NCBI GenBank assembly: GCA_038064215.1
Contig: JBBTTP010000066.1
Span: 13,170 to 44,514, forward strand
Direction of reading: 5' to 3'
DNA from: Patescibacteria group bacterium
Lineage (GTDB): Bacteria; Patescibacteriota; Microgenomatia; UBA10105; UBA927
DNA length: 31,345 bases
Shown: positions 10,912 through 19,606 of the stretch, piece after piece
Layout of the letters: every line of letters begins with the position of its first letter
Numbering within the stretch: the stretch's first letter is position 1
Notes under the pieces: model-generated
Told to the model about the DNA's origin: nothing
Databases searched by the model: none
What the model saw: only the letters and a program-made list of their open reading frames with translations
Program-made: the position numbers and the translations under genes

Positions 10912-12329
10912 AGGGTAGATAAATAACCAAGCATTAAAATAAACACCTCAAGAGACGGATCCTGTGAAAAGAGAGTGTGGAACTGGGCATTAATTAAAAA
11001 TGTAAAAGCGCCTACCCAAATTCCTGTCGAAATCCAGTTATTTTTTATTTTTTTCCAGGACTGCCAGAAAATATAGACAACAAAAACTAGAAATAACAAT
11101 CCTGCAGGAACGCCTAGTTCGGAAAAAAATAAAAGAAACGTATTGTGGACCGGAAACAAGAACCCACGAGCTTCGAGAGAGAGATCGTTGGTCGACATGA
11201 CTTGAGTAAAACGATTCAATCCCACTCCCCAAACAGGAGCCTGTTTGATCATCTCCCATGCTTGAAGGACGAGATTGATGCGGCCCCGGCCATTGCCGAT
11301 GGTCCAAATATCGTTAAATGACTGTAGGCGTGAGAAAAATGCAGGGACAAAAATTGAAAGAGCTACAACTATGATCATAATCATTGCAGCCAATAGCCAA
11401 AACTTCAATGCCCGAACATTTTTTTTGGTACCTAACCAAATAAAAATCATGCCTGATAAAACAATGGCCATCCATCCACTCCGGCTAAAAGTGGCAAAAA
11501 GAGAAATAAGACCGAGGGTCAAAGCTAAGACGGCAACATATTTAGATGATGACCATCTCTTTGATTTTTTTGAAAGCAGAAAGCCGAAACTCACTGGAAT
11601 AAGTAGTGTTAAAAAACTGCCAAAAAAAGTGGGGTGACCCATGAGCCCGGACACTCGATAAAATGGTTCTCCGTCGGTTGTAAGATATCCAAGCGGTCGA
11701 GTGGCGCCGGAATCTTCCAGAAATAACCCCAATGGCTGACGGTTGATGAGTTGCAAGCTTCCCACGATTCCCAGGAGAAGAAGAATGGCAATGAGCGTAT
11801 TTCTAAAAAGTTCCCTCATTCTTTCTCCAATAAAAAGACGGCTTCCGACAAAAAACAGACCAATAGAGGTAAATAAACGCACTAATCCCAAGGACGCCAG
11901 GTTACTATTTTCAGAAACAAAAGTACCAATGACGGACAAAAGCAGGAAGATGAGAAGAATGAAATCAATTGGCTTGAGCTTTTGCCCGTCACCTTTTTTT
12001 ATGAGAACTAACATGAAAAACAGCACCACAAAAATAATCATTTTTGGCGCAATACCAAAATAAAAATCATATCCTGGAATCCAGGGATGGGGACCAGGTG
12101 AGACAACACGTATAAACCACGCCCGCAATCCCCGCTCAAATGGCAGAGACAGGAGTAATGTTGCAAACAAGCTTTCCATTAAAGAAAATTTATTGACAGT
12201 AAATAAAATAAGTCCGTATATCGCGAAGATAACAATGTAGGCCTTATTGTTGGTGATGAGTAGTAATGCCAAAGAAAAGACGTAAGGAGAAATCCGGGGA
12301 TTGAGTATTTGTTTAAGGAGTTTCATCAT
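10908..12329 (-). CDS. O-antigen ligase (Wzy_C) family protein, second copy
   Basis: RVSGLMGHPTFF, TFSRSGW, GRGRINL, APVWGVGLNRF and PVHNTFLLFFSELG. Start 12329 preferred over 12371. Confidence 0.88.
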   Translation of the reverse strand: MMKLLKQILNPRISPYVFSLALLLITNNKAYIVIFAIYGLILFTVNKFSLMESLFATLLLSLPFERGLRAWFIRVVSPGPHPWIPGYDFYFGIAPKMIIFVVLFFMLVLIKKGDGQKLKPIDFILLIFLLLSVIGTFVSENSNLASLGLVRLFTSIGLFFVGSRLFIGERMRELFRNTLIAILLLLGIVGSLQLINRQPLGLFLEDSGATRPLGYLTTDGEPFYRVSGLMGHPTFFGSFLTLLIPVSFGFLLSKKSKRWSSSKYVAVLALTLGLISLFATFSRSGWMAIVLSGMIFIWLGTKKNVRALKFWLLAAMIMIIVVALSIFVPAFFSRLQSFNDIWTIGNGRGRINLVLQAWEMIKQAPVWGVGLNRFTQVMSTNDLSLEARGFLFPVHNTFLLFFSELGVPAGLLFLVFVVYIFWQSWKKIKNNWISTGIWVGAFTFLINAQFHTLFSQDPSLEVFILMLGYLSTL

Positions 12330-13170
12330 GGAAATCCTGAACTTCGACATAGGGAAGATTGTAGTCGGCAAACGAAAACTTAAGCGGAGAATCCAGGCTG
12401 CCGACTTTCAAGATTTGATTGCCGGCAAACCTCCAGCCATACGGATAATTCACCAATAGCAATCTTAGGGTAAGAACAATATCTTTGAGCCGCGGGTTGG
12501 TTTCAAGAAATTGGTTGGTGAAGTATCCCGGACTACTCGTAAAAACGCTACTTGTGGGTGTTTCAGTTGATTTAGATAAAATTTCAGCAACTACTATATT
12601 ATTGGCCCTGTCAAACATTTTGTCTCCGACGGCAATTTTATTGACTACCCATGGTTCAATATTGCGGATACGAACCGTGGCGATAATATATTTCTGTGAG
12701 TATCCTTCTGGTGGAATATTTAACGCTTCAATTTGACCTAGTACTTTGGTTTTGGGTAGTGACAATTCAATCGGTCCTCCAATTTCAACCGCACGGTTTT
12801 TGTACGAATATTTTCCGGTTCGAATACTTGCAACAACCTTAATTTTAGCTGTCACAAATATCGTTGGTTTTACATCGCCATATTGCTCAACAGAGATAAT
12901 ATTTGCGGTTGGTTTGCCGTCGATACCGAATTCCGTGTCACCGGACTTAATGGTGTTGGAAAGCCAGGGCGGCGGATTAAAAGAGTTTCCTCCGGAAAAG
13001 TCTTCGGTCCAATCTTTGCCTTTAACCTCCGCACGGATCATGAGCCATTCTTTTTTGGCGCCGAAAAATTTTATTCCGACGACGAACATCGCTATGACCG
13101 AGATTAAAGCAAACGCCTGTAATGGTGTTATAGTTTTAATTCTTTCCTCTATTTTTTTACTTAATGACAT
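12313..13170 (-). CDS. Hypothetical membrane-anchored protein, DUF4330-like
   Basis: Single N-terminal TM followed by two similar beta-rich halves (IKSGD...ANIISVE / IAVGD...AEILSKS); family assignment is from recall. Confidence 0.55.
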   Translation of the reverse strand: MSLSKKIEERIKTITPLQAFALISVIAMFVVGIKFFGAKKEWLMIRAEVKGKDWTEDFSGGNSFNPPPWLSNTIKSGDTEFGIDGKPTANIISVEQYGDVKPTIFVTAKIKVVASIRTGKYSYKNRAVEIGGPIELSLPKTKVLGQIEALNIPPEGYSQKYIIATVRIRNIEPWVVNKIAVGDKMFDRANNIVVAEILSKSTETPTSSVFTSSPGYFTNQFLETNPRLKDIVLTLRLLLVNYPYGWRFAGNQILKVGSLDSPLKFSFADYNLPYVEVQDFHDETP

Positions 13171-13178
13171 ATTTATAT

Positions 13179-13850
13179 TTATTTTTGTATAATACCCAAT
13201 CCGAATGTACCGGGAAATTCGATCATATTATATATCTTTTTCAACCGCAATTCCTGCCAGAATTGATGGATGCCATAATCGAGATCGTTCGTGTGTTTGG
13301 TATGAATATCGTGGAATGCCATAAATCCACCTTTTGTGAGTTTGGGCCAAAAAAAACGGAAATCTGATTCCACTCCCGCGTATGAGTGGTCGCCGTCAAC
13401 ATGGATATAGCTCCATGTATGGGAGGGGTACAGTTTTTTGAATTTTTGAGTCGTCATGATATGCATTGTAATATAATGCTCAAGGTTAAATTTTTCAAAT
13501 ATGTGCCCGCCTTCTTGTGTGTTCCAAAACCCTACGCCTCCCCAATGGCTTTTGTGTTTGGGATTGGCCTGATCATATCCGGCATCCACAAAGTCGACCA
13601 TTCCTTTTTGGTTATCGCGGCACGCAAGTGCGCAGATTGCCGGTATGTATCCATACCGGCTGCCGATGCATAATACCCGTTTGGGTTGAAGAACGCGAAT
13701 GAGCGCATAATGAATCCATCCATATCCCAGATTACCGGTTGTTTTATCCATTTCATGCCAGTTATCGCTACGAGCGTACAGATCAATAAATCGATTGATT
13801 GACGTGCGGTTGAATATATTGGTTGACTGAAATAGTCCTGTGTAATCCAT
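13179..13850 (-). CDS. Class I SAM-dependent methyltransferase (Methyltransf_24-like), paralogue 1
   Basis: VLCIGSRYG, IHVDGDHSY, GGFMAFHDI. Confidence 0.85.
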   Translation of the reverse strand: MDYTGLFQSTNIFNRTSINRFIDLYARSDNWHEMDKTTGNLGYGWIHYALIRVLQPKRVLCIGSRYGYIPAICALACRDNQKGMVDFVDAGYDQANPKHKSHWGGVGFWNTQEGGHIFEKFNLEHYITMHIMTTQKFKKLYPSHTWSYIHVDGDHSYAGVESDFRFFWPKLTKGGFMAFHDIHTKHTNDLDYGIHQFWQELRLKKIYNMIEFPGTFGLGIIQK

Positions 13851-13873: not shown

Positions 13874-15070
13874 ATGGGAGTTTTTGAAAAATTATTTAGG
13901 TACTTTCCGGATATTTTTTTCCACAAAAAGAAAATTCTTTCGATACTGCAAAAGACTGCCACTCCTGTTTTTTTAGCAGATAAGCGTATTTTGTTGGAGC
14001 GATATCAAAACCTGCAGTGGGCGCTTGAGAAATCGTGGAGCCGGTCACAGATAGCCTATTCGTTTAAAACAAATTACGATATCGCCCGGTCCCGTATATT
14101 TCAAACTCAAGGAGCTTGGGCAGAGGTGGTTTCCGGCAAAGAATACGCGTTGGCAAAAAAACTTGGCTATGCAGGCCATCAGATTATTTTCAACGGGCCT
14201 TACAAAACAAAGGACCAACTCGGTCAAGCGTTTAGAGATGATGCATTAGTTCATATAGATCATAAGGAAGAAATGGAAAGAGTTATTGCTTTAAGCAAAG
14301 TAATAAAGCATCGGATTCGTGTTGGTGTCCGTATCAGTATGCCCATTCCCCATATAGCACGAAGCAGATTCGGTTTTTTTGTTGAGACCGGAGAAGCGCT
14401 AGCGGCAATCCAAAAATTGAAAAAAACACAGGACGTCGACATCGAAAGTATCCATGCTCACATAGGTACAGACGTTGATACGTCACTCAGCTATGCTGCA
14501 GTAGTATCGGGTATGGCAGACGTTGCGGATTTTGCTCTGAAAGAAACGGGAAAACCGATTACTTTTTTGGATATCGGTGGCGGATTCCCTTCTCACGGTG
14601 AAAAACCTTTTAGCAGAATATCGTGGCATCCGAAAAGAATCGAAGATTACGTTCAGGGGATAGTGGGGGAACTGAAACACCATCTGGTTTTCAAGAATAT
14701 TCATCTTGTTGTTGAACCGGGAAGATACCTCGTCGATGATGGGATTATCTTTGCTTGTCGCGTGATTAGTGTTAGACGGGAACCTGGAAAGCAGATTGTA
14801 CTGACCGATGCTACACTTACGATGTTGCCGTTGAAATGGTACCGTCCGCAGATTATTCGTATTTATTCGCAGCAACTTGATGAAAAAAGCGGTCAAGAGG
14901 TAAAAACCGTTCTCTATGGCGCTTCCTGCCGTGAAGATGACATACTGTTTGAGGGGCAATTATCTTCTATTGTATCAGGAGATTATGTGATATTTTTTTG
15001 TGTCGGTGCTTACAATCAAAGTATGGCTTCGGATTTTATTTTTGAAAAACCTGCTGCTGTTTTTTTGTAA
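13874..15070 (+). CDS. Fold-type III PLP-dependent decarboxylase (LysA/ODC family), substrate unknown
   Basis: YSFKTN (PLP lysine), AEVVS, FNGPYK, HAHIGT, DIGGGFP, VEPGRYLV, GASC and GAYNQSM. Confidence 0.88.
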   Translation: MGVFEKLFRYFPDIFFHKKKILSILQKTATPVFLADKRILLERYQNLQWALEKSWSRSQIAYSFKTNYDIARSRIFQTQGAWAEVVSGKEYALAKKLGYAGHQIIFNGPYKTKDQLGQAFRDDALVHIDHKEEMERVIALSKVIKHRIRVGVRISMPIPHIARSRFGFFVETGEALAAIQKLKKTQDVDIESIHAHIGTDVDTSLSYAAVVSGMADVADFALKETGKPITFLDIGGGFPSHGEKPFSRISWHPKRIEDYVQGIVGELKHHLVFKNIHLVVEPGRYLVDDGIIFACRVISVRREPGKQIVLTDATLTMLPLKWYRPQIIRIYSQQLDEKSGQEVKTVLYGASCREDDILFEGQLSSIVSGDYVIFFCVGAYNQSMASDFIFEKPAAVFL

Positions 15071-15870
15071 TTGATATCTTCATCATCTATTTTTTGAATA
15101 AATCCCAGGCCGGAGTAATGGTTGGTGAGCTTGAATTTATACGGCAAAAACGAGAGATTTCTCCACATTTTTCCATGTTCAAAACGCATGCTTTCCGCAG
15201 TCCGGTCAAAATCTATGTCATGAAAGCAGATGAATCCTTCAGGGGTGAGGCGGGGCCAAAATAGCCGGAGATTGGTTATAGCACCCTGGTACGAGTGGTC
15301 GCCGTCCAGGTAGATATAGTCATAGTTCCAATTTTCTTTTTTGGCAAACTGTGCGCTGGTCATAATGTGCGTTGCTATATATTTGTTGACACCGAGGTAG
15401 CGAAAATGCTCGTCGGGTTTAACAGTTTTCCAGAATCCCTGGCCATAGTAATGTTTGCTGCTTCCCTTTTTCATGTCATACGATGCATCGACAAAATCTA
15501 CAAAACCTATTTGGTTTTCCATGCAGGCCTTGGCCATCATATACGGGATGAATCCGTACATGGAACCGATACAGAGTACCCGGTTGGGTTTCTGATTTCT
15601 GATGATTGCATAATGAATAAGCCCATATCCGAGATTCTGTGTAGATTTTTCCAGGTTTTGCGACCGCTGGTCGTTCCACCGGTAGTCCGCGCCGTAGTAA
15701 TAGACAATGCGGTCGTAAAAATAGCGTTCGAATGCGTGGTACATGGGGAAAAGGAATAAAGTGTCAAGCCAAAATGTTTTTCCCCATATTTTTTGTCGCA
15801 GTTTTTCCAGGGCGCGTTTGATGCCGAGGTTTAAATGAATAGAATGATAGATTTGTTCAATAAATTTCAT
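15016..15870 (-). CDS. Class I SAM-dependent methyltransferase (Methyltransf_24-like), paralogue 2
   Basis: VLCIGSMYG, IYLDGDHSY, EGFICFHDI. Shares NLGYGxIHYAxIR with 13179-13850. Start probably 15870. Confidence 0.82.
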   Translation of the reverse strand: MKFIEQIYHSIHLNLGIKRALEKLRQKIWGKTFWLDTLFLFPMYHAFERYFYDRIVYYYGADYRWNDQRSQNLEKSTQNLGYGLIHYAIIRNQKPNRVLCIGSMYGFIPYMMAKACMENQIGFVDFVDASYDMKKGSSKHYYGQGFWKTVKPDEHFRYLGVNKYIATHIMTSAQFAKKENWNYDYIYLDGDHSYQGAITNLRLFWPRLTPEGFICFHDIDFDRTAESMRFEHGKMWRNLSFLPYKFKLTNHYSGLGFIQKIDDEDINYKKTAAGFSKIKSEAIL

Positions 15871-15918
15871 TTTCGGTTGACGAGGCCTTCTTATTGTTGA
15901 TACACTAATGCAAATTAA

Positions 15919-16860
15919 ATGGTTAAACAAATTATTTTACCACAAATAACAGAAAAAGAGTTTTTCCGTCGATTAAGAGAAAGACCTTTCGAGGATATCG
16001 GAGCTATCCGTACCATCGAGTCATTTTTTAAAAAAAAGCGCGGTTATATCTTCAAAATGCCTAAGCCAGGGACGCCGGTTATTCTTTTGGTTTCCGGCGG
16101 CTTGGACTCAACCACCACTTGGGGGCTACTGCTTTTAAAATATAAATTAGTGGTCTACCCTCTTTTTATTTTCCGTGACAGTGTACGATCTAAAAAGGAA
16201 GAACATGCTGCCGATTATTTTTGGAACTATTTTTATAGAAAGTATCCCAACCAAGTCATGCCTTTAATGAAATTTCATACTATTCTTTCACCGCCGGAAA
16301 TAACCTTGAGTATGGAAAAAGAACATTATTATCATCCTAAACGGGTTTTAGACCTGATTGGCAACGAGATGATGCTTAAATATCCAAATTTTTATCCGCA
16401 ACGGGTCCTCCCTTATATTCACGTCTTTTATGCGCTGGTATACGCTCAATATCTTTATGAGCATGTAGATGTAAAGATACGGACGGTGTTTACCGCGGTT
16501 CTGGCCGGCGACGGATTAGTCGTACCCAGTCAGACACTTACTTCGCTTCGAACGGCTCTTCTTTCTGTTTGCCATACTACTGCTGATTATAGTTGGCAAT
16601 TTGCTTCTATCACTTTTGAAAAAGAATTGGGGCATTGGTTTTATAAAAAAGACGTGATTCTTTTGGGAAACAAGATGGGCCTACCGCTTGAAAAAACCTG
16701 GAGTTGTTACAGTGCGGGTTTGTTTCAGTGCGGCAACAGGTGTCAGACCTGCAAGAACAGAAGAGACGATTTTAGGGGCTCGGGACTCATTGACAAAACC
16801 GTTTATCTTGAGGATTTGACTTGGGTGAAATGGATGAGACATTTGGGGTTAATGAAGTGA
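15919..16860 (+). CDS. QueC-like (7-cyano-7-deazaguanine synthase family) PP-loop ATP pyrophosphatase, non-canonical
   Basis: SGGLDS PP-loop; C-terminal TWSCY...CGNRCQTCKNR zinc site; about 50-aa N-terminal extension; lacks the canonical VPxRN motif. Confidence 0.75.
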   Translation: MVKQIILPQITEKEFFRRLRERPFEDIGAIRTIESFFKKKRGYIFKMPKPGTPVILLVSGGLDSTTTWGLLLLKYKLVVYPLFIFRDSVRSKKEEHAADYFWNYFYRKYPNQVMPLMKFHTILSPPEITLSMEKEHYYHPKRVLDLIGNEMMLKYPNFYPQRVLPYIHVFYALVYAQYLYEHVDVKIRTVFTAVLAGDGLVVPSQTLTSLRTALLSVCHTTADYSWQFASITFEKELGHWFYKKDVILLGNKMGLPLEKTWSCYSAGLFQCGNRCQTCKNRRDDFRGSGLIDKTVYLEDLTWVKWMRHLGLMK

Positions 16861-16871
16861 TCGTCATTCTA

Positions 16872-16930
16872 TTGACAAAGATAATCCGATTTTCGTATTA
16901 TATATGATATACGTGGCATGATAGGGGGTG
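16872..16930 (+). promoter_or_regulatory. Sigma70-type promoter (TTGACA-18-TATTAT) plus Shine-Dalgarno-like GGGGGTG
   Basis: TTGACA 16872-16877, TATTAT 16896-16901, GGGGGTG 16924-16930, ATG at 16942. Confidence 0.65.
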
Positions 16931-16941
16931 ATTTTTTCACT

Positions 16942-17025
16942 ATGAAAGCGAAAAAAACGTACGCAAAACCAGGTGACAAGAAGGTAAAAATTCTCATGAA
17001 AGCACTTTTGGCCCTCAAGATGTAA
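16942..17025 (+). CDS. 27-aa peptide MKAKKTYAKPGDKKVKILMKALLALKM; putative RiPP precursor or leader-like peptide
   Basis: Not in the ORF track. Has its own promoter and RBS, a YxxP motif, and a TAA stop overlapping the PqqD ATG (TAATG). Confidence 0.6.
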   Translation: MKAKKTYAKPGDKKVKILMKALLALKM

Positions 17026-17291
17026 TGAAAAGGTTTAAAAGAGCTTCCTCTGTTCTTTCAAAGAAGATCCAAAATGGATGGGTTGTCCTCGAAAAAAATG
17101 CGAATTACTATCGTGAGTTAAATGATGTTGCAAGCATTTTGTGGTCCGTGTTGCAAACTCCCAGGTCACTTCAAGAACTCACTCAGACGGTAGTGAAGAC
17201 GTTTGATGTTGATACTGCAGCAGCAGAAAAAGATATATCCATTTTTATCAAAAAATACGTATGCAACGGATTTTTGGAAGAAGTTTCATAG
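17025..17291 (+). CDS. PqqD family protein / stand-alone RiPP recognition element
   Basis: 88 aa with the three-strand plus three-helix RRE pattern YYRELNDVASILWSVLQTPRSLQELTQTVVKTFDVD...AEKDISIFIKKY...GFLEE. Confidence 0.88.
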   Translation: MKRFKRASSVLSKKIQNGWVVLEKNANYYRELNDVASILWSVLQTPRSLQELTQTVVKTFDVDTAAAEKDISIFIKKYVCNGFLEEVS

Positions 17292-18308
17292 AGGTATGGC
17301 AGCGTTGTTTATTTTTGTCACCACTCCCATATAATTTTTTTCTGTTATTTCCCACGCATCAAAGCCAAAAGCATTGTCCCCCTTGGTTAAGCAAGCAAGT
17401 TTTTCATCTTTGATTGTGATTTCTGCCACGCGGTGAATAATAAGCTCCGGAAAATTGTGAAATGTAAAGGCAATAATATACCCCGATTTGACTTTACGAA
17501 AGGGTATTTTTTGAATGGCGAGGAGATTGCCTTTCCGGATAACCGGATACATACTGTTTGATGAGGCTTTGACGATGACAGAGCGGTGTTCCAGTGTTTT
17601 TTGAGTTGCCCAAATCATGGTTTCTTGTGTTTGATTCTGAAGTACTCCTTGATCAATAATGAGTACTCTATCGCAAAATTGTTGGAGTACTCCTATATCC
17701 TGCCAAGTAAATAAAATTGTTTTTGTACGCGGCAATGTCCTAAATACCGCAAGTCCTTTTTGCCGAAAATCCATATCCCCGACGCTGAGTCCTTCATCAA
17801 CAATAAGAATGTCCGGATCAGAGTGGGTAGCTATGGAAAAGCCAAGACGTAGTTTCATGCCTGCCGAATACGTAAAGAGCGGTGCGTCGATAAACCGGCC
17901 GATGGCAGCAAACGCGATAATACTTTTGAGTTTTTGGCTGATTTTATTTTTATTTACGCCCAGAAGCATAGCGTTGAGGTATATGTTCTGAATTCCGGTT
18001 AGTTCCGGATGGAATCCGGCTTCGAGATCTATCAAAGATACAATTCTGCCGTTAGTCTGGACCGTGCCGCTTGTGGGCGTCGTAATGCCGGCGATGATTT
18101 TGAGGAGGGTCGTCTTTCCCGACCCATTCGGGCCGATGATGCCGACCCGCTCCCCTTTCTTGATCGTGAGGTTCACGTCCTTCAGCGCCCAGAACTCCTC
18201 ATCTTTGCCCTTCGCTAGCCGCTCGACGAGCGTGGGCTTCTCGTGGTGGATGGTATATCTCTTTGAAACACCGGTGAGTTTTATGGCGATGTGTGTGTTT
18301 TGTCTCAT
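17286..18308 (-). CDS. wzt: Wzt-type polysaccharide ABC transporter ATPase fused to a C-terminal S24/S26-family peptidase domain
   Basis: Walker A GPNGSGKT, GFHPELTG, YSAGM and Walker B ILIVDE. The C-terminal ~105 aa carry SNSMYP...IIHRV...TKGDN. True start is 18308; the ORF-track extension is shadow of wzm. Confidence 0.85.
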   Translation of the reverse strand: MRQNTHIAIKLTGVSKRYTIHHEKPTLVERLAKGKDEEFWALKDVNLTIKKGERVGIIGPNGSGKTTLLKIIAGITTPTSGTVQTNGRIVSLIDLEAGFHPELTGIQNIYLNAMLLGVNKNKISQKLKSIIAFAAIGRFIDAPLFTYSAGMKLRLGFSIATHSDPDILIVDEGLSVGDMDFRQKGLAVFRTLPRTKTILFTWQDIGVLQQFCDRVLIIDQGVLQNQTQETMIWATQKTLEHRSVIVKASSNSMYPVIRKGNLLAIQKIPFRKVKSGYIIAFTFHNFPELIIHRVAEITIKDEKLACLTKGDNAFGFDAWEITEKNYMGVVTKINNAAIPL

Positions 18309-19072
18309 AGCCAGTCGTCGAAATTTTTGCTTTCCCGTTGAAATACTGTTATCCCCAGGATGGTGATGAGGACAATGACGCCGATATTGGATAGGAGCAT
18401 CCCCGGCCCCGGGCCGGGTAAACCCAGAAGTGCTTGTTGTAGCAGTTGGAGCATTGATGTTAACGGATTGAACCGCCAGAGCCAGAGGAGATGACGCGGG
18501 ATCATGGTAAGGGCGTACATGATGGGTGTGGCGTAAAACCAGATAATGAGGAGGGCGGAGACGAAGAAGCTGACGTCGCGGAATCGGACGTTGAGACTGG
18601 TGGTTAAAAGACTTAGCCCAACGGTAAACGTGAGCAATAAGATAAAACTCGCAAGAACAAGGGGAATGGATATCCATGAGATTGTCCCCAAAAAAAGCAC
18701 CGGGATGAGATACAAAAGAAATGCAAGAAAAAAATGGATGAAGTTGGACAGAATGATGGAGATCGGGATGACGGCATGAGGAAATCGTGCTTTCTTAATG
18801 AGGCTTCGCTCGTAGACGATAGACGGTGTTGCTTTAGAAAGCGAGAGCGAGAAAAAATTCCAGACCAGAAGTCCAATGAAAAGAAAGAAATAATAATTTT
18901 TGACCGGTTGCGCCAGAAGGAAGGTAAAGACAAATCCAATGACGAGCATTTGCAAAAGCGGATTGGCGACTAGCCAGAAAAATCCGAACACGGTGTGTTT
19001 GTACCGCGCCCGGAGTTCTTTTTCCGTCATGCCCCACAAGAGTTCCAAAAAGTGTTGCACTTGCCTGTTCAT
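18305..19072 (-). CDS. wzm: Wzm-type ABC-2 permease
   Basis: ELRARYKHTVFGFFWLVANPLLQM, LNVRFRDV, WFYATPIMY, NPLT. 4-bp overlap with wzt; start 19072. Confidence 0.92.
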   Translation of the reverse strand: MNRQVQHFLELLWGMTEKELRARYKHTVFGFFWLVANPLLQMLVIGFVFTFLLAQPVKNYYFFLFIGLLVWNFFSLSLSKATPSIVYERSLIKKARFPHAVIPISIILSNFIHFFLAFLLYLIPVLFLGTISWISIPLVLASFILLLTFTVGLSLLTTSLNVRFRDVSFFVSALLIIWFYATPIMYALTMIPRHLLWLWRFNPLTSMLQLLQQALLGLPGPGPGMLLSNIGVIVLITILGITVFQRESKNFDDWL

Positions 19073-19090
19073 GCGTCTATTATATGCTAA
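19073..19090. promoter_or_regulatory. Overlapping divergent -10 boxes: TATAAT (minus, 19079-19084) and TATTAT (plus, 19078-19083)
   Basis: 18-bp gap; boxes lie 6 and 7 nt from the ATGs at 19072 and 19091. Confidence 0.55.
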
Positions 19091-19606
19091 ATGTTTTCCC
19101 TTCTCTACCAACAGCGAAGAATAGGTAAGGGCGGTATGCCGTTTGCTCTGTATAAATTCCGCACGATGATCGCGGGGGCTGATGCCATGCAGAAAAAATT
19201 GCTTCCCCGCAATGAAGCAGATGGTCCGGTGTTTAAAATCCGCGATGATCCCCGCTTTACCCGTATAGGCAGATTTTTAAGCCACACGGGGCTTGACGAG
19301 TTGCCGCAGATTATCAATGTGATACGCGGTGAGATGGCGATCATCGGCCCGCGTCCGCTGCCTGCGGCAGAAGCTGCTAAACTCAAATCCTGGCAGAAGA
19401 AGCGCCACAGCGTGAAGCCCGGTATTATTTCTCCGTGGATCTTGGAGGGATATCATGCAAAGTCATTCAATGAATGGATGAAAAGCGACATTGCGTACGT
19501 CAAAACCAAGAGTATGTTGGGTGATGTGCGGTTGGGGTTCCGGGCGTGTCTGTTTATGGTCAGGCTTTTTGGGAAAGAATTAGAAGCCATATTGTCAAAC
19601 CGATAG
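19091..19606 (+). CDS. Bacterial sugar transferase (phosphoglycosyl transferase catalytic domain) lacking the N-terminal membrane helix
   Basis: QRRIGKGG..F.LYKFRTM, DDPRFT, GLDELPQ, IIGPRP, VKPGI. An in-frame TAA lies immediately upstream of the ATG. Confidence 0.85.
   Translation: MFSLLYQQRRIGKGGMPFALYKFRTMIAGADAMQKKLLPRNEADGPVFKIRDDPRFTRIGRFLSHTGLDELPQIINVIRGEMAIIGPRPLPAAEAAKLKSWQKKRHSVKPGIISPWILEGYHAKSFNEWMKSDIAYVKTKSMLGDVRLGFRACLFMVRLFGKELEAILSNR

Follow-up and report, generated by a model that had tools for sequence, protein, structure and literature searches.

The window analysed here, a stretch of 31,345 nt of DNA from an ultra-small Patescibacteria bacterium, contains one copy of a conserved Patescibacteria/CPR cassette of six to eight genes, and no paper describing the cassette was found in a literature search. 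The usual cassette order is Methyltransf_24 methyltransferase, PLP decarboxylase, QueC-like PP-loop ATPase, peptide (about 20-35 aa) and PqqD/RRE; next come a convergent signal-peptidase-like domain, in most cases on a Wzt-type ABC ATPase, and the permease, which is Wzm-type. In the window, the minus strand carries two copies of a SAM-dependent methyltransferase of the Methyltransf_24 family, copy a (13179..13850; PF13578, E 1.4e-14) and copy b (15016..15930; PF13578, E 2.6e-12), the ORF of the latter running from TTG 15930 with a likelier start at the ATG at 15870. The plus strand encodes a group IV PLP-dependent decarboxylase (Orn/DAP/Arg type, nearest FslC; 13874..15070; PF02784 and PF00278), the QueC-like PP-loop ATP pyrophosphatase (15919..16860; PF06508, the Pfam QueC family, E 5e-12), a previously unannotated precursor or scaffold peptide of 27 aa recognised from the ORF list and from homologous mini-ORFs (16942..17025), and a stand-alone PqqD-type RRE of 88 aa (17025..17291; PF05402, E 1.2e-10). 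The peptide gene has its own sigma-70-like promoter (TTGACA-18-TATTAT, 16872..16901, plus strand) with 11/12 consensus matches, a Shine-Dalgarno-like GGGGGTGA motif lies 10 nt before the peptide ATG, and the peptide stop TAA (17023-17025) overlaps the PqqD ATG by one base, 17025. The preliminary description of this locus had placed all these small features correctly, as well as the QueC-like gene upstream and the PqqD/RRE gene downstream. It had also described an S24/S26 peptidase lying head-on downstream; the domain is indeed convergent, but it has no gene of its own and instead forms the C-terminal part of a Wzt/TagH-like ABC ATPase of 340 aa (17286..18308, minus strand, with the start ATG at 18306-18308; PF00005 and PF00717). 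This S26B-type domain, of the ER/archaeal signal-peptidase type and with SEC11-like sequence, occupies about 17289..17675, and the 3' ends of the ATPase and PqqD genes share 6 nt. The gene of an ABC-2 (Wzm-like) permease (18305..19111, minus strand; PF01061, E 5e-16) precedes the fused ATPase gene and co-occurs with it in most loci.

We surveyed 41 loci of the QueC-like family, 22 of which are well-flanked (at least 1.5 kb on both sides), with 53 loci carrying canonical or other QueC relatives as controls. The peptide (as a YxxP mini-ORF), PqqD and the S26 domain occur together in the same 19 of the 22 well-flanked loci, the ABC ATPase in 18, and Methyltransf_24 and the PLP decarboxylase in 16 each, counts that overstate independence because many loci are near-duplicates from related samples; none of these six components is present in any of the 53 control loci. 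The earlier proposal that peptide, RRE, protease and PP-loop enzyme belong to one pathway is supported by this co-occurrence, and the decarboxylase (in two unrelated folds) and the Methyltransf_24 enzyme are newly recognised core members of the cassette. Gene order and orientation differ between loci (for instance, L020-L022 have the RRE and the peptide in divergent orientation, and L010 and L043 have every gene pointing the same way), which indicates that the set is kept by function and not by simple inheritance of one arrangement. In addition, there are two distinct natural QueC-like::PqqD fusion proteins (P0085 and L026:3406-4668). The expected association of QueC-like enzyme and PqqD extends to most loci but not to all, since three of the 22 have no PqqD. 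Five loci of the survey (L011, L025, L030, L055 and L115) combine the QueC-like gene with the decarboxylase and the methyltransferase and have no peptide, RRE or S26 domain, and a search of the whole same-genus genome G001 (91% complete) found no PqqD. The existence of peptide-less loci implies that the QueC-like enzyme can work without the peptide, which may not be its substrate. Glycan clusters surround the cassette in all inspected loci, with Wzy_C, WecG, GT1/GT2, DegT and Bac_transf families nearby in the window and in three further Pfam-annotated loci; the genes called in the latter three loci include no pilus genes.

In the window peptide, a basic N-terminus is followed by Y-A-K-P-G-D-K-K and then by an amphipathic strand-like segment, and the tail is short. 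Its promoter is the best promoter-like site across 15000-19500, and of 29 distinct upstream regions of homologous peptide genes, 18 have a score of 10/12 or more, a level reached by 2.3% of random 110-nt windows from the same loci. Homologous mini-ORFs are present in 33 of the 41 family loci and in L113, from genomes and metagenomes labelled as several different CPR groups. As had been anticipated for ORFs beside homologous PqqD genes, the YxxP motif is conserved, with Tyr and Pro invariant in all 33 distinct mini-ORFs. The peptide HMM gave 34 short-ORF matches in 375 kb of family loci, each at most 69 nt from a QueC-like or PqqD frame, and none in 254 kb of control loci; chance cannot explain such conservation, though a lone 27-codon ORF could be a chance frame. 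The peptide is under protein-level selection: synonymous changes are frequent between orthologous peptides (for example, nine synonymous versus three non-synonymous between L010 and L045). Among the 31 distinct HMM-matched peptides, Y1 and P4 are invariant, a basic residue stands at about position 7, positions 9-13 alternate as [IV][KR][IL][KR][VA], and position 16 is A, P or T. The tail beyond this conserved 16-residue segment measures 1-8 aa in 29 of the 31, in agreement with the initial impression of a leader with little or no core, and in several peptides it has no acidic residue. In five peptides a single residue (Thr) follows the putative cleavage site, and in seven position 16 is Pro; hence the cleavage site is not fixed, and the putative product would be extremely small.

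The window PqqD protein is translationally coupled to the peptide gene, is the sole PqqD in that genome, and has weak, sub-threshold matches to the NCBIfam lasso PqqD models NF033530 and NF033536. The locus has the gene content of an RRE-dependent RiPP pathway, namely a PqqD-type RRE beside a short YxxP-bearing gene, plus modifying enzymes. The QueC-like enzyme contains an SGGLDS motif at 16093-16110 (residues 59-64) and a four-Cys zinc motif at 16681-16761, whose residues C263, C271, C275 and C278 are invariant or nearly so in the family alignment; about 50 N-terminal residues and an insert at about residues 125-165 are extra. A fold search with its AF2 model (pLDDT 84.6) retrieved Cap9 (9nto_B) as the best match, followed by QueC 2pg3 and 3bl5, and Cap9 is also the best PDB match by sequence. 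Canonical QueC proteins are characterized by the substrate motifs YxQxHxxE, VPxRN and YPDC, with essential Y35, R99 and Y131 (PMC13329287). In an alignment with six canonical QueC proteins from the control loci, these motifs are missing from the QueC-like family, which shows VYP.., a large insert and VPSQ at the respective sites. Canonical QueC identity was rejected on three grounds: a score of 30.2 bits against the QueC equivalog TIGR00364, far under its cut-off of 150.3, the loss of the substrate motifs, and the failure to find QueD (PF01242) in the 93%-complete source genome. For TGT, that genome gave no more than a partial match.

The S26 domain includes the candidate catalytic Ser in N-S-M (17553-17555) and His in I-I-H-R-V (17433-17435), as well as T-K-G-D-N (17373-17387). 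Its best solved sequence relatives are human SEC11C (E 2.6e-5) and SEC11A (E 2.5e-4), with an alignment spanning SM, HRV and TKGDN, and SM, HR and [KR]GD are retained in 19 of 19 distinct homologous S26 domains. At least 16 loci carry the domain on a Wzt/TagH-type ATPase, and in L032, L034 and L052 its fusion partner is a GT1 glycosyltransferase; together with the surrounding glycan clusters, these fusions corroborate the suggested tie to surface glycan. The best NCBIfam matches of the ABC ATPase are TagH (E 9e-53) and Wzt (E 3e-47), all below equivalog cut-offs. The combination of this ATPase with an ABC-2 permease resembles the Wzm/Wzt and TagGH exporters, although the H-loop of the window ATPase reads FTWQD. 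As in Wzt, an extra C-terminal domain follows the nucleotide-binding domain, in the place of the Wzt substrate-recognition module; in the cassette ATPase, however, this domain has a signal-peptidase-like fold whose catalytic motifs are intact, and it is not a carbohydrate-binding module. The transporter appears to be of the polysaccharide/teichoic-acid type and is not a known peptide exporter, which counts against a peptide-export step.

The window decarboxylase has FslC as its best NCBIfam match, below cut-off, and N-citrylornithine decarboxylase (7kh2, E 2.6e-43) as its best solved relative. Eighteen family loci encode a group II decarboxylase, and the window, L011 and L027 encode group IV enzymes. 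In 12 loci no more than 150 nt separate the decarboxylase and QueC-like genes, and in eight of these the decarboxylase gene is directly upstream on the same strand. FslC (rhizoferrin) and BtrK decarboxylate an amino acid that has previously been joined to another moiety, amide-linked ornithine in the case of FslC, and the window enzyme is similarly paired with a putative ATP-dependent amide-forming enzyme. In contrast to these systems, the cassette has no siderophore synthetase or carrier protein, and most loci carry the group II decarboxylase of unrelated fold instead of an FslC relative.

A close parallel for the peptide part of the cassette is provided by the linear polyphosphorylated peptide (LPP) RiPP clusters known from Bacillota, in which a SipW-like Ser/His/Asp peptidase is an experimentally proven RRE-dependent leader peptidase that cuts the leader YxxPxVLxHQxIxFET| after T-1 (Popov et al., 2026, Nat Commun, PMC13381572). 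Both systems have a discrete PqqD-type RRE, an N-terminal YxxP precursor, an archaeal/ER-type (SipW/Sec11-like) Ser/His/Asp signal peptidase, for which the leader-peptidase role is proven in LPP, and a location within polysaccharide loci. The spacing from Tyr to position 16 of the cassette peptides equals that of the LPP leader, so that a 16-residue Tyr-to-cleavage spacing would be common to both if position 16 is the site. On the other hand, the remainder of the leader motif (VLxHQxIxFET) is missing from the cassette peptides, which are 20-47 aa long across the family versus 35-200 aa for LPP precursors, and position 6, hydrophobic in lasso and LPP leaders, is Asp in 14 of the 31 peptides. 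The HprK-like kinase, NTP transferase and MsbA-like exporter of LPP clusters are absent from the window cassette and the Pfam-annotated neighbours; instead, the cassette has the QueC-like PP-loop enzyme, the PLP decarboxylase and Methyltransf_24, its peptidase forms in most cases part of a Wzt-type ABC ATPase, and its phylum is Patescibacteria. Lasso peptide clusters share with the cassette the logic of an RRE, a leader protease, an SGGxDS-type ATP pyrophosphatase and an ABC exporter, the YxxP(xL) leader motif, and the lasso PqqD models weakly matched by the cassette RRE. However, the cassette PP-loop enzyme has a QueC fold and its protease is an S26 serine peptidase, whereas the lasso cyclase has an Asn-synthetase-B-like fold and the lasso B2 protein is a transglutaminase-like cysteine peptidase. 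A lasso ring needs a core of about 15-25 aa with Asp or Glu at core position 7-9. Pfam scans of the cassette genes identified the enzyme as QueC and the protease as Peptidase_S24 and revealed no asparagine-synthase or transglutaminase-core family, and the tails are too short and have no conserved Asp/Glu at positions 7-9; a lasso cluster was rejected for these reasons.

Taken together, the most likely role of the cassette is to modify, trim and export a very short peptide of ribosomal origin, a reading to which we give moderate confidence. The peptide would be transcribed from its own strong promoter, and the RRE is predicted from the motif and the RRE family to bind Y-x-x-P and the following amphipathic strand. 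The RRE would then present the peptide to the QueC-like enzyme, as the two QueC-like::RRE fusions suggest, and this enzyme may adenylate a carboxylate and form an amide. The C-terminal carboxylate of the peptide is the likeliest site, because the peptides share no conserved carboxylate or amine in their side chains, and our best guess is therefore amide formation at the peptide C-terminus after carboxylate adenylation. The adjacent PLP decarboxylase would provide or complete the likeliest amine partner, after which the Methyltransf_24 enzyme could methylate the product. By analogy with LppS/LppB/LppA, the cytoplasmic Ser/His/Asp domain presumably cuts behind a small residue (Ala, Thr or Gly) that lies roughly 16-19 residues C-terminal to the Tyr, and the short modified C-terminal fragment or conjugate would leave via the Wzm/Wzt-like transporter.

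If this modification pathway is real, the QueC/PF06508 scaffold, known for nucleobase synthesis, protein deazaguanylation, and the LarE and GMP-synthase chemistries, gains a further job in acting on a ribosomal peptide, and signal-peptidase-type leader peptidases extend from Bacillota to CPR bacteria, including an ABC-transporter-fused form. Few secondary-metabolite pathways were found reported in the literature for Patescibacteria; these genome-reduced, host-dependent bacteria would nevertheless keep a dedicated peptide-modification pathway within their surface-glycan loci, which would bear on how such epibionts build or decorate their host-attachment surface. The very short tails suggest that the peptide may be a carrier for building a small amine-containing group or, alternatively, a genetically encoded glycan cap.

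A credible, though clearly less probable, reading is that the cassette is directed at the glycan: the QueC-like enzyme, decarboxylase and methyltransferase would target a sugar acid (or amino sugar) in the island's lipid-linked polysaccharide for amidation and decoration, with the peptide, RRE and S26 domain as an add-on. In such a scheme, an amide bond may attach the short tail to the glycan as a cap, or the peptide may gate the Wzt exporter, in which S26 stands in place of the carbohydrate-binding domain. The position of the cassette inside glycan clusters in the window and the three Pfam-annotated loci, the S26 fusions to Wzt/TagH-type ATPases or GT1, and the retention of the QueC-like gene, decarboxylase and methyltransferase in RRE-less loci all point this way, and a 1-8-residue tail is more sensible as a cap than as a free product. 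The formation of glucuronamides in the Campylobacter capsule, where an ATP-dependent amide ligase is paired with a PLP decarboxylase, offers an analogy. Against this stand the QueC-like::RRE fusions, which speak for recruitment of the peptide by the enzyme itself, and the lack of any NCBIfam sugar-amidotransferase match to the QueC-like enzyme. Ribosomal peptide-polysaccharide amide conjugates formed in this manner also have no precedent known to us. Sugar amidotransferases such as WbpG are among the PF06508 relatives, but the family does not show the WbpG-type signature (SGGxDSxY and a reversed order of the Cys motif; PMC13329287), and its own Cys motif is C-terminal as in canonical QueC. A further reading, in which the cassette joins the ribosomal peptide to a cell-surface polysaccharide through a QueC-like amide link and yields an exported polymer with a gene-encoded 1-8-residue peptidyl cap, strikes us as rather unlikely. 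There, the C-terminus of the RRE-held peptide would be linked to an amine on a lipid-linked glycan or on a decarboxylase-derived linker, and the signal-peptidase domain, replacing the Wzt carbohydrate-binding module or sitting on a glycosyltransferase, would remove the leader as an export checkpoint.

In a Cap9-like reading, the S26 domain would first free a new N-terminus on the C-terminal fragment, to which the QueC-like enzyme would then ligate an adenylated small-molecule carboxylate, as Cap9/QatC do with 7-carboxy-7-deazaguanine. Cap9, the best PDB match in both fold and sequence, is a QueC-family enzyme making an amide bond to a protein N-terminus (bioRxiv 10.1101/2025.04.06.647259), and the cassette holds a protease that would create a fresh N-terminus. 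A QueC scaffold acting on a polypeptide via carboxylate adenylation and amide formation, a feature of Cap9/QatC (type IV CBASS, QatABCD), is also what we infer for the cassette enzyme. The QueC-like family differs from these systems in its additional N-terminal helices, its roughly 40-residue insert and the lack of a defence-island context. Nevertheless, we regard the Cap9-like reading as improbable: the canonical deazaguanine pocket is kept in Cap9 but lost in the QueC-like family; QueD was not found in the source genome; no TGT-like (Cap10) or QatB-like partner was seen in the window cassette and Pfam-annotated neighbours; and the decarboxylase is left unexplained. Finally, the view that the mini-ORF is a chance or vestigial frame, or a mere translational-coupling device for PqqD without peptide function, draws on its 27 codons, its minimal putative core and its absence from some family loci, but is highly improbable and contradicted by the comparative data, including Tyr and Pro invariance across several CPR groups, the control loci free of HMM matches, the synonymous excess, the dedicated promoter, and the tandem duplication of the peptide gene in L029 and L042.

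The preliminary description of this locus had named a hidden mini-ORF with its own promoter, together with QueC-like and PqqD genes and a peptidase; all of these features are present, the sole correction being that the peptidase is not a separate gene. The 27-codon mini-ORF is located at 16942-17025 and is preceded by the promoter TTGACA-18-TATTAT (16872-16901), which agrees with the consensus at 11 of 12 positions and ranks first among promoter-like sites within 15000-19500. The ribosome-binding motif GGGGGTGA lies 10 nt 5' of the mini-ORF ATG, and the TAA stop overlaps the ATG of the following PqqD gene by one base.

The collected relatives of the QueC-like enzyme comprise 89 database proteins, loci of related genomes, 11 loci of species-representative genomes, and 80 metagenome loci, the last of which were split into 27 loci with full-length family members and 53 loci with canonical or other QueC relatives that serve as controls. 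Mini-ORFs beside the QueC-like or PqqD genes share a common design, in which a basic N-terminus is followed by a Y-x-x-P motif and an alternating hydrophobic/basic stretch. The peptide HMM gave 34 matches in 375 kb of family loci, each within 69 nt of a QueC-like or PqqD frame, and no match in 254 kb of control loci; these yielded 31 distinct sequences, and two more peptides were spotted by eye (L035 and L113). Counting from the Tyr of YxxP as position 1, Tyr-1 and Pro-4 never vary, a basic residue stands at position 7, [IV][KR][IL][KR][VA] is the pattern of positions 9-13, and position 16 is occupied by Ala (13), Pro (7), and Thr (5) among the 31 distinct sequences. Two precursors have long tails beyond position 16: a 23-residue tail with six Cys at L027:5561-5701 and a 20-residue Pro-rich tail at L026:3191-3328, the latter in a locus that also has a QueC-like::PqqD fusion and two further PqqD genes.

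Orthologous peptide pairs differ by many synonymous codon changes (for instance, 9 synonymous vs. 3 non-synonymous), which shows that selection acts on the peptide sequence. Promoter sequences agreeing with the consensus at 10 or more of 12 positions, mostly with a perfect TTGACA, occur in 18 of 29 distinct regions upstream of peptide genes, as compared with just 2.3% of windows drawn at random from these loci. Together, the HMM matches, conserved design, synonymous changes, and upstream promoters indicate at the sequence level that the mini-ORF is a genuine gene; a chance ORF was rejected in view of the specificity of the HMM, the synonymous changes, the promoters, and the tandem duplications of the peptide gene in two loci (L029:6967-7124 and L042:950-1092), where the tails of the copies differ slightly. 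At four loci (L018:6982, L031:6982, L036:1980, and L027:5561) the precursor mRNA may be leaderless, since the -10 box ends about 6 nt before the peptide start codon; the leader of the window's peptide mRNA, by contrast, is 40 nt long and includes a Shine-Dalgarno motif.

The PqqD gene (17025-17291; PF05402, E 1.2e-10) encodes a stand-alone domain (RRE) with weak similarity to lasso-type PqqD chaperone models. In the 22 family loci whose flanks reach 1.5 kb or more on both sides, the peptide, PqqD, and peptidase domain occur together in the same 19 loci, the ABC ATPase in 18, Methyltransf_24 in 16, and a PLP-dependent decarboxylase of either of two folds, a further core member, in 16, counts that are not independent because several loci are near-duplicates (L039/L040, L032/L034/L052, L045/L046, L049/L050, and L041/L114). 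Each of these six components is absent from all 53 control loci. The consensus operon runs methyltransferase, decarboxylase, QueC-like enzyme, peptide, and RRE, followed by convergent peptidase(-Wzt) and Wzm genes; gene order and orientation differ among the loci, which argues for functional linkage. The distant QueC-like paralogues of related genomes (L012-L015 in G059, G047, and G036; 25-32% identity) lack a neighbouring peptide, PqqD, or peptidase gene, and in L015 a group II decarboxylase adjoins the paralogue.

The group II decarboxylase (Pyridoxal_deC) is found in 18 family loci, and the window, L011, and L027 have a group IV enzyme of unrelated fold. The decarboxylase and QueC-like genes are no more than 150 nt apart in 12 loci, eight of which have the decarboxylase directly upstream on the same strand. 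The occurrence of two unrelated folds in one slot points to a required decarboxylation step. The decarboxylase of the window is closest to FslC (7kh2, E 2.6e-43), whose substrate is ornithine already amide-linked to citrate. The Methyltransf_24 protein had no match in a sequence search of the PDB. The TTG start (15930) of a second Methyltransf_24 ORF overlaps the start of the QueC-like gene; translation more likely begins at an in-frame ATG at 15870, which leaves a divergent intergenic gap of 48 nt.

The S24/S26 peptidase, rather than being a separate gene, makes up the C-terminal ~125 residues of a Wzt/TagH-like ABC ATPase of 340 aa encoded at 17286-18308 on the minus strand, convergent with the PqqD gene; an ABC-2 permease gene (18305-19111) precedes the ATPase gene. 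At least 16 loci have this domain fused to the ABC ATPase and about nine have it stand-alone, and in one lineage (L032:7267-8790 on the minus strand, L034, and L052) it is the C-terminal part of a GT1 glycosyltransferase (PF00534 + PF00717). Among proteins of solved structure, human SEC11C and SEC11A are the nearest in sequence, with an alignment spanning the SM nucleophile, the His of HRV, and the TKGDN box, and each of the 19 distinct peptidase domains retains the SM, His, and KGD-type motifs. The domain is cytoplasmic, because it lacks a membrane anchor and follows a nucleotide-binding domain that is itself cytoplasmic. The H-loop of the ATPase reads FTWQD (17697-17711, minus strand), while peptidase-fused homologues keep the His (FVTHD in L018, SHD in L027); the Gln in place of the switch His, seen in this genome only, may weaken ATP hydrolysis.

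The QueC-like PP-loop protein (15919-16860) matches Pfam QueC with E 5e-12, and scores 30 bits vs. the QueC equivalog cut-off of 150 bits. Its AF2 model is confident (pLDDT 84.6), and the structural matches are, in rank order, Cap9 (9nto_B), QueC (2pg3, 3bl5), and other PP-loop enzymes. The family keeps SGGxDS and a four-Cys zinc site, has ~50 additional N-terminal residues and a ~40-residue insert, and is missing the YxQxHxxE, VPxRN, and YPDC motifs, all three of which are essential for deazaguanine chemistry as shown by mutagenesis (PMC13329287). Neither QueD nor a second QueC above the cut-off was detected in the 93%-complete genome. From the loss of the deazaguanine motifs and the undetected QueD, we infer a carboxylate-adenylating QueC-fold enzyme with a substrate other than 7-carboxy-7-deazaguanine. 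The TGT match in the genome is partial (profile positions 2-108 in a 171-aa open frame, G000:C47:25095-25427, locus L109), and in a genome with no detected QueD it could reflect queuine/preQ salvage, a split or truncated tgt, or an assembly break.

Asp-6 is present in only 14 of the 31 peptides and Lys-7 is replaced by Arg in some, and no side-chain carboxylate or amine is conserved; since the sole universal carboxylate is the C-terminus, the latter is the modification site in the best reading. The QueC-like enzyme, guided by the RRE, would adenylate the peptide C-terminus, and an amide would be formed with an amine that the decarboxylase supplies or completes; methylation would follow, the peptidase domain would then cleave the peptide near position 16-19, and export would be the last step. 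The main rival holds that the QueC-like enzyme, decarboxylase, and methyltransferase act on a glycan, with the peptide as a cap or gate. It draws on the polysaccharide-type transporter of the cassette, the peptidase-glycosyltransferase fusion, five peptides with a single residue past the putative cut site, five loci without RRE that still hold the QueC-like, decarboxylase, and methyltransferase genes, and the same-genus genome G001, where no PqqD is detectable. However, two different natural fusion proteins in which a PqqD domain follows the QueC-like enzyme at its C-terminus (P0085 and L026:3406-4668) speak against an enzyme that never meets the peptide; in the AF2 model of the L026 fusion the pLDDT is 25-68 in the linker and RRE domain, and the placement of the RRE relative to the active site is unreadable. 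The peptide-modification pathway proposed in the preliminary description is supported, within the reach of comparative genomics. A macrolactam between the side chains of Asp6 and Lys7/8 was discarded, as neither residue is universal. Also dismissed were canonical queuosine synthesis (motifs lost and QueD undetected), a lasso peptide (no AsnB-like cyclase, no B2 protease, tails too short), and a WbpG-type sugar amidotransferase (different signature).

In the linear polyphosphorylated peptide (LPP) RiPPs of Bacillota, whose clusters are located in capsule loci, LppS, a Ser/His/Asp peptidase similar to SipW, removes the leader in an RRE-dependent manner, and the leaders, YxxPxVLxHQxIxFET, are cut after Thr, 16 residues from Tyr (Popov et al., 2026, PMC13381572). 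The CPR peptides share YxxP and a small residue at an equal distance from Tyr, an analogy that supports a leader-peptidase role of the fused domain; in contrast, the CPR cassette has no kinase, nucleotidyltransferase, or MsbA-type exporter, and its precursors are much shorter. The QueC-family enzymes Cap9 and QatC are able to form an amide to a polypeptide (bioRxiv 10.1101/2025.04.06.647259). Literature searches combining QueC with RiPP, RRE, or precursor peptide, and CPR with RiPP, found no description of the cassette, and two RRE-mining papers and a 2026 PF06508 survey report neither QueC in RiPPs nor PqqD beside QueC. The cassette fits a known scheme, in which peptides are matured with an RRE and a leader peptidase of the signal-peptidase type; for its QueC-like/PLP decarboxylase/Methyltransf_24 set and its transporter-fused peptidase we found no paper.

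The contig, C66, belongs to an 836-kb genome, with relatives among Patescibacteria/CPR. The cassette is surrounded by a glycan island encoding Wzy_C, WecG, GT2, a second Wzy-like protein, a DUF4330-like protein, and a sugar phosphotransferase, which is flanked by pilin genes on one side and pilX/pilM on the other. Like the window, where it is encoded at 12313-13170 (minus strand), at least eight further loci (L011, L019, L026, L032, L041, L044, L052, and L115) have the DUF4330-like membrane protein close to the cassette.
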